Origin: an uncultured Nitratifractor sp.
Lineage (GTDB): Bacteria; Campylobacterota; Campylobacteria; Campylobacterales; Sulfurovaceae
Assembly: GCA_964414305.1 (NCBI GenBank)
Contig: CAYPVY010000001.1
Span: 1 to 24,711 of the forward strand
Direction of reading: 5' to 3'
Length of the DNA stretch: 24,711 bases
Within the stretch, counting starts at the first letter, position 1, and every line of letters begins with the position of its first letter. The notes under the pieces were generated by a model. That model did no database searches, was not told the DNA's origin, and saw nothing but the letters and a program-made list of their open reading frames with translations. A program made the translations under genes and the position numbers. Shown in pieces: positions 15,502 through 20,464 of this stretch.

Positions 15502-15711
15502 ATGTTAGATAAAAAAGATTTATTAGATGATATTAAGAAACTTTGGAATAATAGTAAAATTATTGAAGATTTTGATATCTCACCTCAAATTTTAGAATAT
15601 CTAGAGATTGAAGATTTAGAAAAATTAAAATATAAAATTTTAAATTCTATGAAAGAGTTAAATGACGAGCAAAAAGAGTGGTTATCAAAATTTAAAAAAA
15701 GTATAAACTAA
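15502..15711 (+). CDS. small acidic hypothetical protein (69 aa)
   Basis: ATG with SD AAAGGT, own extended -10, helical Leu/Glu/Lys-rich sequence that fills the gap between divergent genes. Confidence 0.7.
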   Translation: MLDKKDLLDDIKKLWNNSKIIEDFDISPQILEYLEIEDLEKLKYKILNSMKELNDEQKEWLSKFKKSIN

Positions 15712-16160
15712 ATACCCTTTTTTATCTTTATATACTCTTCAGCATCATAAGCTTCTATTCCTAAATCTTTTGCATATTGTGCCATTACGCCTGTTCCTTT
15801 AGAAGATATTAAATTTTTATCTCTATCATATACTTTTGCACTACATACACCACAACTTGGACTTCTATCTTTTCCTATAAATAATTCAATATCTTTATTA
15901 TTATCAAAAAAAGCCTTTGCATACTCTTTGATTGGTGGAGTTAAATCAGCATGAGTTAAGTTTGATATTACCTTTTGATTCTTACCATCATCAACTATAT
16001 CCATTGTTGGTCTTGGGGTGCCATAACAAAAATCTTCTGGACAAAATGGAATTAACTCATAGCACTCCAAAAGCCCAAGAAGTTTTGGGTCATAATTATC
16101 ACTTCCATCATATCTGCATCTATTGCCAAGCAAACATGCACTAATAGCTACTTTTTTCAT
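15708..16160 (-). CDS. DUF523 / 2-thiouracil desulfidase (TudS)-like Fe-S protein
   Basis: ISACLLGNRCRYDG, PFCPE, GTPRP, KDRSPSCG motifs; TAATG coupling to the upstream ALDH. Confidence 0.85.
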   Translation of the reverse strand: MKKVAISACLLGNRCRYDGSDNYDPKLLGLLECYELIPFCPEDFCYGTPRPTMDIVDDGKNQKVISNLTHADLTPPIKEYAKAFFDNNKDIELFIGKDRSPSCGVCSAKVYDRDKNLISSKGTGVMAQYAKDLGIEAYDAEEYIKIKKGI

Positions 16161-17611
16161 TAAAATATAACTACCGATTTAATCTCTGTAAACTCTTCAA
16201 GAGCAAACTTTGGCCCCTCTTTACCAATACCTGATTGTTTTATTCCACCATATGGTTGAATGTCAAATCTAACTGTTGGGATATCATTTACTACTACTCC
16301 GCCCGCTTCTGCATCATCAATAAAAGCCCTTGTATTTTCAAGTGAATTTGTAAAAATACTATATTGCAATCCATATGGAGAGTTATTTATCTTTTCTATT
16401 GCCTCTTCATAAGAGTTTACTTTAACAAGTGATACTATTGGTGCAAATACCTCTTCACACACAATTTTCATATCATCACGAACATCAATCATTACAGTAG
16501 GTGGAAAAATTCCATCAACCTCTTCTCCCCCATACAAAACTTTTGCTCCTTCATCAATAGCACTTGCTACCCATCTAGCAGCTCTTAGTTTTGCATCTTC
16601 ATTAATAAGTGGTCCCATAAAAGTCTCTTCTTCATATGGTGAACCAACTTTTAAAGTTTTTGCCTCATTTGCAAGAGCATTTGCAAACTCATCATATACA
16701 TTTTGGTGCACATAGATTCTTTGCAAAGATATACATACTTGACCACTATTATAAAAAGAGCCAAAAGCACACTTCTTAGCTGCATCTTCAATATCTGCAC
16801 TCTCATCAATAAAAGTTGCAGCATTTCCACCCAACTCCAAAGCAACCTTTTTTATACCAGCATTTTTCATTATTATTTTACCAACTTGAGCTGAACCTGT
16901 AAAACTAATAACCCTAGGAATTGAATTGCTTACTAGCTCACTACCAACCTCAGCATCGCCATAGACTACACTTAGTGCATCTTTTACTGCAAACTCACTC
17001 TCTATAAATAGTTTTGCCAAAGCATAGGCACACATAGGAGCTTCTGGAGTTGGCTTTAGAACTACTGCATTTCCAGCTCCTAATGCAGGTGCAATCTTGT
17101 GTGCTACTAAATTTAAAGGAAAATTAAAAGGTGTAATAGCACTAACAACACCTACTGGAACTCTTTTGTAATAAGCCATTGCCTTTTTCCCACTAGCTGT
17201 TGCATCTGTTGCAATAGTCTCTCCATGTAAATTAATCAACTCTTTAGCAGTAAGCTCTATTGTTTCTGCACATCTTATAACCTCAATTTTTGCAAATTTT
17301 AGAGGTTTACCTACCTCATCTACAATTAATTTAGCAAACTCATCACTCTTTTGTCTTAATTTTGATGCAACATCTTCTAGCCAACTTATTCTTTGATGTA
17401 GTGGTATATTTTTTGCTACTTTAGCTGCATTTTGTGCTATCTCTAAAGCCTTTTTTGCATCATTTGCATCACATTTTGGATATTTGCTAACTACTTTTTT
17501 TGTATATGGATTTTTTATCTCTATAAATTCATCTCTCTCTTCAATATTTGAACCAAATAGAACCTTTGCGATATTTGGTGTATCATCTGTTTTGGTAAAT
17601 ATATCAAACAC
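16160..17611 (-). CDS. NAD(P)-dependent aldehyde dehydrogenase
   Basis: ITPFNFPLNL, VVLKPT, FTGSAQVG, LELGGN (catalytic Glu), NSGQVCIS (catalytic Cys), EEVFAP, PYGGIKQSGIGKEG; GTG start with SD AAGGA. Confidence 0.93.
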   Translation of the reverse strand: MFDIFTKTDDTPNIAKVLFGSNIEERDEFIEIKNPYTKKVVSKYPKCDANDAKKALEIAQNAAKVAKNIPLHQRISWLEDVASKLRQKSDEFAKLIVDEVGKPLKFAKIEVIRCAETIELTAKELINLHGETIATDATASGKKAMAYYKRVPVGVVSAITPFNFPLNLVAHKIAPALGAGNAVVLKPTPEAPMCAYALAKLFIESEFAVKDALSVVYGDAEVGSELVSNSIPRVISFTGSAQVGKIIMKNAGIKKVALELGGNAATFIDESADIEDAAKKCAFGSFYNSGQVCISLQRIYVHQNVYDEFANALANEAKTLKVGSPYEEETFMGPLINEDAKLRAARWVASAIDEGAKVLYGGEEVDGIFPPTVMIDVRDDMKIVCEEVFAPIVSLVKVNSYEEAIEKINNSPYGLQYSIFTNSLENTRAFIDDAEAGGVVVNDIPTVRFDIQPYGGIKQSGIGKEGPKFALEEFTEIKSVVIF

Positions 17612-19417: not shown

Positions 19418-19750
19418 TTACCCACTACAACTTGTATCATCTAAATTTGCTTTATTACTTGCACCCTCTTTATAAGTAAACTCTAACTTTACTCTTCCAT
19501 CATCTAGCTTTTCTTCACTAATATTAAAGTTTTCTCCAATCTTATCAAGTAAACCCATAGGTTTTTTATGATTTATCATAATTAACTTTTTGTTTGGCGA
19601 ATCTATTAGCTTTAATCCTGCCATTGCATTAACCATAGGCTCAGGTGGACCACATCTGCTAGTATCAAATTCATAAACTTCTACATCACCATCTTTATAT
19701 CTATAAAAATCAACTGTTGCACCTGCAACTTCTACTTTTTCTTTTTCCAT
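19418..19750 (-). CDS. TusA/SirA-like (DUF2249-type) protein, 110 aa
   Basis: FDTSRCGPPEPMVNAM resembles the D-x-R-x2-(C)PxP TusA/DUF2249 signature; INHKKPMGL; ends SCSG; ATG 19750 with SD AAGGAG. Confidence 0.72.
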   Translation of the reverse strand: MEKEKVEVAGATVDFYRYKDGDVEVYEFDTSRCGPPEPMVNAMAGLKLIDSPNKKLIMINHKKPMGLLDKIGENFNISEEKLDDGRVKLEFTYKEGASNKANLDDTSCSG

Positions 19751-19773
19751 CTTTAAATACTCCTTTTTTGAGT

Positions 19774-19782
19774 ATTCTATCA
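19774..19782 (-). promoter_or_regulatory. extended -10 (TGATAGAAT) of the six-gene operon
   Basis: TGnTAGAAT on - strand 23 nt upstream of ATG 19750, preceded by a T8 tract. Confidence 0.65.
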
Positions 19783-19800
19783 AAAAAAATCTCTAAAATA

Positions 19801-19814
19801 TTGATTTATATCAA
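19801..19814. promoter_or_regulatory. Crp/Fnr-family (Fnr/Dnr/Nss-type) binding site
   Basis: Perfect TTGAT-TTAT-ATCAA; centre 19807.5, about -40.5/-41.5 from the inferred start site; the only such match I found in the window. Confidence 0.75.
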
Positions 19815-19836
19815 TTTTTAATATTTTATATAAAAT

Positions 19837-20334
19837 TTACTTATTTTTTAACTTTTTTATTTTTACTATTAATTTGCCATCTTTTATATTATAATCAATA
19901 CTTTTACTATCTGCATCTTTTGGAAGGGTAAAGCTTTGCATAAAAGAACTACTAGAAAAACTCTTAACTACACCATAACTACTATTATTTTCAAGGCTTT
20001 TTTTCTCTTCTACTTTTATTGTTAAAACTCCATCTTTTGCTTCTACATTTGCTTTAACATTACCTTTGCCTACATTTACATCAACTTCATAATAATCTCC
20101 CTTATCTTGAACACCTGAACTAATTATAGAACTTGAACTAATCATTGTAGGCATATTAGATTTATCTAAACTTTTAAAAACCTCATCCATTTGTTTTTGC
20201 ATCAATTCCATTTGTTTCATTTGCATTTGAAAAATTTTATCTATTTGAGAGAATGGATCACCATTTGTAGCTAAGCTATTTTGTGCATTTACTAAAGTCA
20301 ATGTTGCAATTAAACTAAATATATACTTTTTCAT
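19837..20334 (-). CDS. Hsp20/alpha-crystallin family protein with N-terminal signal peptide
   Basis: Alpha-crystallin C-terminus (VEAKDGVLTI, FMQSFTLPKDADSKSIDYNIKDGKLIVKIKK); MKKYIFSLIATLTLVNA signal; ATG 20334 with SD AAGGAG. Confidence 0.82.
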   Translation of the reverse strand: MKKYIFSLIATLTLVNAQNSLATNGDPFSQIDKIFQMQMKQMELMQKQMDEVFKSLDKSNMPTMISSSSIISSGVQDKGDYYEVDVNVGKGNVKANVEAKDGVLTIKVEEKKSLENNSSYGVVKSFSSSSFMQSFTLPKDADSKSIDYNIKDGKLIVKIKKLKNK

Positions 20335-20464
20335 TGCATACTCCTTAAATATATTTACATCAAAATTATATATAAGAAATATTTGAAAAAATTGCAAACT
20401 AAGTTGCATTTATTACACATTTTATATACAAAACTATAGTAAAATTAAAATAAAAAGGATATAT

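Follow-up and report, generated by a model that had tools for sequence, protein, structure and literature searches.

A conserved Crp/Fnr-type box links an operon encoding a protein with a heme-copper oxidase fold to a predicted N-oxide regulon in Campylobacteria

INTRODUCTION

Among described Crp/Fnr-type systems, those closest to the promoter analyzed here are the Nss regulons of the Campylobacterota. In Wolinella, the regulators NssA, NssB, and NssC raise the expression of nap, nrf, and nos in response to nitrate, NO, and N2O (PMC6682613, PMC8139620), and in mesophilic vent Campylobacteria Nss-type genes lie upstream of nap (PMC7476070). PMC11539149, citing Kern and Simon 2016, gives the Nss site consensus as TTGA-N6-TCAA, in agreement with the consensus that a first-pass annotation of the DNA studied here had stated. 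In Nitrosophilus labii, exact boxes begin 48 to 49 nucleotides (nt) upstream of the napA, norE, and nosB starts (PMC11539149). This distance corresponds to the arrangement box-N22-hexamer followed by a 7-nt discriminator. The literature thus contains the same Nss arrangement within the Campylobacterota, and the class of mechanism considered below is already known.

Two further systems invite comparison. The class II arrangement of Escherichia coli FNR (TTGAT-N4-ATCAA at -41.5) shares with our locus the consensus, the position relative to the -10 element, the lack of a -35 element, and a regulator with an E--SR recognition helix. It differs in that FNR carries a [4Fe-4S] O2-sensing N-terminal Cys cluster, which is missing from P0125, the candidate regulator described below, and in that the spacer in the genus studied here is 1 nt shorter. 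The NO-responsive activators Dnr and NnrR likewise act at an FNR-type box ahead of nor and other denitrification genes and lack the FNR cysteines, but P0125 bears only distant similarity to them and has a conserved C-terminal C-x-x-C. The NssR site of Campylobacter jejuni is TTAAC-N4-GTTAA.

Here, we describe a box of this type in a 24,711-nt stretch of DNA (the window) from the vent metagenome-assembled genome (MAG) of an uncultured Nitratifractor sp.; the MAG comprises 1.18 Mb in 149 contigs, is 74.65% complete, and has a GC content of 28.7%. Like the Nss regulons of Wolinella succinogenes, C. jejuni, and N. labii, the system belongs to the Campylobacterota, uses the same consensus, and has boxes before nap and a nor-like operon; as in those regulons, about 48 nt would separate the first base of the box from the transcription start, here a predicted one.

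RESULTS

A palindromic box takes the place of the -35 element. Read directly from the window sequence, ATTGATTTATATCAAT (ATTGAT-TTAT-ATCAAT) forms a perfect 6-4-6 palindrome at positions 19800 to 19815, assigned to neither strand, within which the Crp/Fnr-type core TTGAT-N4-ATCAA occupies positions 19801 to 19814. This exact inverted repeat is one hallmark of a class II promoter. On the minus strand, a -10 element, TAGAAT (19779..19774), follows 21 nt 3' of the box and is preceded by TG-A (19782..19780), the full stretch being TGATAGAAT (19782..19774). Rereading the sequence returned both elements exactly where the first-pass annotation had put them. At the -35 position (19797..19802, minus strand) stands AATATT, which agrees with TTGACA at 1 of 6 bases and overlaps the promoter-proximal half-site, and a sigma-70 consensus scan called no -35/-10 pair at this promoter. 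The second hallmark of a class II promoter, an absent or weak -35 element overlapped by the proximal half-site, is thus present as well.

Taking TAGAAT as -12 to -7, transcription would begin near 19767 on the minus strand (predicted range 19766..19768, that is, 7 ± 1 nt past the -10 element), and the center of the box, 19807.5, would lie at -40.5; the earlier calculation of the same start and center is arithmetically correct. Because the spacer is 21 nt where 22 is usual, the value of -40.5 holds only for a start 7 nt past the hexamer. A ribosome-binding site, GGAG (19763..19760, minus strand), lies 9 nt 5' of an ATG at 19750..19748, which is most likely the start codon of the first minus-strand gene; an alternative, longer frame opening with TTG at 19783 would overlap the -10 element. 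A search for sequencing runs of this genome returned no RNA sets and seven DNA sets, these being hydrothermal vent metagenomes and related ones.

A palindrome in this position might also be read as an intrinsic terminator of the neighboring Hsp20-like gene (19837-20409), that is, as a hairpin with a U-rich run after it. The palindrome does lie 22 nt past the stop of that gene on the same strand, and a U-rich stretch would follow it in the RNA. However, the stem would have six pairs with a single G-C, the regional fold is no better than that of shuffled sequences (z = -0.65), and a terminator scan makes no call. Moreover, across relatives the sequence of the half-sites is kept, not merely their pairing, and the Hsp20-like gene stands upstream of the box in only 4 relatives' loci while the box is found in nearly all, indicating that the box travels with the downstream operon. 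We consider a terminator very improbable, and read the palindrome as part of the promoter.

The box is conserved at a fixed distance from the -10 element. In the window, 0.11 exact boxes are expected by shuffling, with at least one in 11 of 100 shuffles, close to the 0.14 per window estimated in the first pass; boxes with at most one mismatch number 7 against 4.2 expected. The single-window statistic is weak by itself. The whole MAG holds 8 exact boxes, near the 3.3 to 6.3 expected from composition, and this count alone is not significant; we discarded it as an uninformative test and gave weight only to the intergenic subset and to conservation. The approximately 87 kb outside long open reading frames contain 3 of the 8 boxes against 0.16 to 0.52 expected; by our own arithmetic, the corresponding Poisson tail lies between about 0.016 and 0.0006. 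The shuffles and the genome-wide count, together with the commonness of TAnnnT hexamers at 29% GC, speak for a functionless chance palindrome in AT-rich intergenic DNA beside an equally fortuitous -10-like hexamer. Against it, the position and spacing of the box are unchanged ahead of orthologues from six families although its flanks have diverged, and all three intergenic exact boxes precede functionally linked operons, which makes coincidence exceedingly improbable.

For the phylogenetic footprint, stretches of at most 160 nt preceding the P0002 orthologue (P0002 being the first gene of the operon) were taken from 28 loci that represent 11 genera of one family. Of these 28 loci, which come from related genomes and are not independent samples, 25 have the box ahead of the operon with one mismatch or none, and the remaining three (L032, L039, and L044) lack it. 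The spacer between the box and a TAtAAT-type hexamer measures 22 nt at 19 of the 25 loci, 21 nt at 5, and 23 nt at 1; the 21-nt spacers belong to the window and four loci of the same genus. Within the genus, four of five relatives share the window's 21-nt spacer and the fifth has 22 nt, as do nearly all other genera and the five other families. In those five other families of the class, a box with at most one mismatch occurs at 18 of 20 loci, and the spacer is exactly 22 nt at all 19 loci whose box has two mismatches or fewer. With starts placed by inference, the center of the box would thus fall at -41.5 in orthologues with a 22-nt spacer and, if transcription begins 7 nt past the hexamer, at -40.5 in the window. 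Lack of conservation upstream of orthologues, which the first-pass annotation had named as evidence against its reading, was not what we found: the box is kept at 43 of 48 promoters from six families, at a fixed spacing from the -10 element.

When the family loci are aligned on the box, TTGAT, ATCAA, and the -10 element are the only positions of high information content, and the N4 and the flanks vary. Nearly invariant half-sites around a variable N4 are likewise seen at 18 of the 20 loci from the five other families. The 115 kb of family loci contain 15 exact boxes, 14 of which are the promoter site. The "extended -10" described earlier fared less well: its TG is present in the window, but TG precedes the -10 element at only 2 of the 25 box-bearing family loci, that is, at just one other. 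Judged from these alignments, conservation of the promoter does not extend to the TG, which in the window may permit basal promoter activity without the activator.

The operon encodes a membrane protein with an HCO subunit I fold. All of its genes lie on the minus strand. The first, P0002 (19418..19750), encodes 110 amino acids (aa) with a weak, subthreshold DUF2249-like match; the second, P0001 (18169..19413; 414 aa), a 12-helix membrane protein with the fold of subunit I of the heme-copper oxidases (HCO); and the third, P0004 (17856..18167), a DUF59/FeS_assembly_P protein. The fourth, P0003 (17611..17922), encodes a small membrane protein in a frame overlapping the 3' end of the DUF59 gene. 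It is kept after the DUF59 gene in 15 relatives and is therefore a real gene; translation probably begins inside the listed frame, near residue 23, since alignments in many relatives begin near residue 24 to 26, suggesting a later start than the one listed. An aldehyde dehydrogenase gene (16160..17611) overlaps its neighbors and is probably cotranscribed, and the run ends with a gene of the DUF523/2-thiouracil desulfurase family (15708..16160), whose overlap, the one indication of cotranscription, suggests that it may belong to the same transcript. In 29 relatives' loci, P0004 follows P0001 in all 29 and P0002 precedes P0001 in 28, the one locus without P0002 being cut at a contig end. The module is followed by P0003 in 15 relatives and by the aldehyde dehydrogenase in 9.

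P0001 has no Pfam or NCBIfam match. Its more than 2,000 relatives are mostly unnamed and mostly from the Campylobacterota, and one of them is called a "heme-copper oxidase family protein." An AlphaFold model built from 34 relatives (mean pLDDT, 88) gave cbb3 CcoN, bo3 subunit I, and NorB as top Foldseek/PDB matches (TMq 0.62 to 0.74, the highest being CcoN). Five histidines are invariant (H52, H79, H181, H209, and H324), and the HH pair is absent. Two other identities were considered and set aside: Pfam and NCBIfam are silent on NnrS even at E = 1, NnrS appearing in the Atlas at low score only, and a literature search on NorH (Helicobacter pylori HP0013) gave nothing usable. Among the feature neighbors of P0001 there is also, at a low score of 0.86, an Atlas cluster of 613-aa DUF2249-bearing proteins.

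The other intergenic boxes precede napA and a gNOR-like operon. The two remaining intergenic exact boxes of the MAG, both TTGATTTAAATCAA, lie ahead of napA and of a two-gene HCO operon. The napA box stands 22 nt from TGA-TAAAAT, giving a predicted center of -41.5, and that of the HCO operon 22 nt from TAATAT. NCBIfam confirms the identity of napAGH. In relatives, a box with at most one mismatch occurs ahead of napA at 25 of 30 loci and ahead of the HCO operon at 17 of 22, 16 of which are exact. The HCO operon (contig C12:12876-15118, equivalent to L006:3877-6119; minus strand) consists of P0135 and P0136. P0135, the large subunit, is most similar to Thermus ba3, of the B family; relative to ba3 it has Leu/Asp at the CuB ligand His233 and Ala at the cross-linked Tyr237, and it keeps the HH pair. 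CuA ligands are missing from P0136, the small subunit. A putative NO reductase, gNOR, has been described with such features (PMC11214002), and it is with this description that the operon was compared. The P0135 gene is the sole COX1-family gene found in the 75%-complete assembly, in which ccoN was not found. Boxes thus precede respiratory N-oxide genes, as in an Nss regulon, by way of napA and the gNOR-like HCO operon, bearing out the expectation of the first pass that a genome-wide scan would turn up nap or nor promoters. Searches of the 75%-complete MAG found neither nirS nor nosZ; as the MAG is incomplete and the nosZ family search also missed its control, we draw no conclusion about nosZ or nirS promoters.

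Several genera carry the P0001 operon directly 5' of napA. G045, a relative whose genome is complete, has 17 matches to the pattern box-N21-23-TAnnnT, versus 0 for a reversed control, and 10 of the 17 fall within 212 to 300 kb. The genes that follow it encode a Rieske protein, mono- and multiheme cytochromes c, a sirohaem-synthase-like protein, an HCO small subunit, and the P0002 orthologue. The corresponding region (G045:C1:212000-301000) forms a respiratory N-oxide island: within approximately 90 kb it brings together napA with the P0001 and gNOR-like operons, the regulator gene, and eight or more box promoters.

Two one-mismatch boxes in the Nitratifractor MAG were also seen at comparable distances from a hexamer. 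One, TTGATATAAATCAT (C102:3727-3740), stands 22 nt from TGT-TAAAAT ahead of an FmdE-domain gene divergent from ferrochelatase, and the other (C109:3288-3301) stands 20 nt from TAAAAT ahead of moeA. These may be further regulon members, concerned with molybdenum cofactor and heme supply. One-mismatch boxes ahead of lon, nusA, a patatin gene, and a LysR gene have unsupportive spacing and were treated as chance occurrences.

A Crp/Fnr-type protein with a matching recognition helix is encoded in the genome. The assembly contains two Crp/Fnr genes, on contigs C31 and C67, and neither lies in the window, as the first-pass annotation had stated. P0125 (contig C31:2888-3577; L007) has a cNMP-binding domain and an HTH_Crp_2 domain, and its recognition helix, TPETLSR, was aligned by HMMER to TVETISR of Aliivibrio FNR. 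An E--SR helix is the established reader of TTGAT; the genome thus encodes a protein with the recognition helix that matches the box. The PDB matches of P0125 include FNR (E about 1e-9, at low identity) and DNR (3dkw; E 9e-7). Its first 80 residues contain no cysteine; beyond them lie C82, C92, and the C-terminal C-x-x-C. Without N-terminal cysteines P0125 is not an FNR in the strict sense, a class that combines an N-terminal Cys cluster with a central Cys. The product of the second gene, P0126, was rejected as the regulator: its helix, VRHIIDR, lacks E--SR, and it scores best to NtcA.

Most genomes with the operon also encode a P0125 orthologue (48 to 67% identity), and in many relatives its gene lies within a few kilobases of napA, the P0001 operon, or the HCO operon. 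The location of P0125 orthologues upstream of nap resembles that of the Nss genes of mesophilic vent species, a likeness of gene position. The TPETLSR helix is invariant in 30 orthologues. In the Nitratifractor assembly itself, the targets are not near the P0125 gene, and no box was found upstream of it.

Two observations concern the regulator itself. P0125 and its orthologues (L113-L141; all 30) share an invariant tail, K-x-C-[TSN]-x-C-[IL]-x-x-[FL]-K, which is absent from the descriptions of Nss or Dnr proteins in the literature cited here; its C-x-x-C could be a redox- or metal-sensing element. In two relatives of the same genus (G033 and G052; loci L114 and L115), the regulator gene has an exact TTGATTTATATCAA 73 nt ahead of it, which suggests that the regulator is autoregulated in these two genomes.

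DISCUSSION

The conserved sequence and spacing described above indicate that TTGAT-N4-ATCAA at 19801 to 19814 very probably serves as a genuine binding site of an activator of the Crp/Fnr type (Nss/Dnr-like), and the interpretation put forward in the first-pass annotation is, on sequence grounds, supported. As a model, we propose that an Nss/Dnr-like Crp/Fnr dimer, most probably of P0125, would bind both half-sites, with its center approximately 40.5 to 41.5 bp upstream of the start. The bound dimer would fill the place of the missing -35 element and recruit RNA polymerase to the TAGAAT -10 element, and transcription would start near 19767 on the minus strand. The resulting transcript would carry the genes for the DUF2249-like protein, the HCO-fold membrane protein, the DUF59 protein, and the small membrane protein, and probably also those for the aldehyde dehydrogenase and the DUF523 protein. 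Activation, as opposed to repression, and an N-oxide-related effector are the presumed mode and signal. We regard this explanation as a whole (a class II activator-dependent promoter, a regulator of the P0125 type, and membership of the operon in an N-oxide regulon) as highly probable. The operon shares its predicted regulon with napAGH and the gNOR-like putative NO reductase, which points to nitrate or N-oxide respiration or NO stress as the most likely occasion for its expression.

The same site could be genuine and yet serve another Crp/Fnr-family protein or another signal, such as a P0125 paralogue missing from the assembly, an O2 or redox sensor, or a repressor. With the MAG 75% complete, another paralogous regulator may exist, and some relatives have two or three P0125 paralogues, just as Wolinella has NssA, NssB, and NssC (PMC6682613). 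An invariant C-terminal C-x-x-C in the P0125 orthologues would suit another signal, and the general respiratory genes (Rieske, cytochrome c) among the targets in G045 would fit a broader anaerobic switch. However, P0125 is the sole Crp/Fnr protein found here with E--SR, P0126 having VRHIIDR and NtcA as its best match; the predicted position near -41.5 combined with an absent -35 element is the geometry of an activator; and P0125 is without the N-terminal Cys cluster by which FNR senses O2. We judge a different regulator or signal unlikely, and continue to favor activation of the operon by P0125 within an N-oxide regulon.

The targets of Nss regulators named in the cited papers are nap, nrf, nos, nor, and globin genes; the DUF2249-like/HCO-fold/DUF59 operon is not among them. 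Tentatively, and at odds we would put well short of even, the most deeply conserved target of the Nss/Dnr box across Campylobacteria might be the unannotated P0002-P0001-P0004-P0003 module instead of nap, nor, or nos, and the module might be an unrecognized component of N-oxide respiration or NO detoxification. If this is true, the module, whose HCO-fold protein P0001 lacks the CuB His pair, could for instance be a metalloenzyme of a new kind that handles NO or N2O, or else a sensor in the membrane, and the promoter would offer a handle for inducing and studying the module.

The type of site is a textbook one, and the value of the finding is as a lever for annotation, tying the HCO-fold operon to a predicted N-oxide regulon. 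An operon without family assignment, present in most of the vent and sulfur-oxidizing Campylobacteria searched, would stand under the same switch as nap and the gNOR-like operon. The analysis nominates a specific regulator, P0125, and yields a testable prediction of when the HCO-fold protein is made. Box-N22-TAtAAT also provides a simple pattern with which N-oxide regulons may be reconstructed in uncultured Campylobacterota with a part in the nitrogen loss and N2O turnover of vents.
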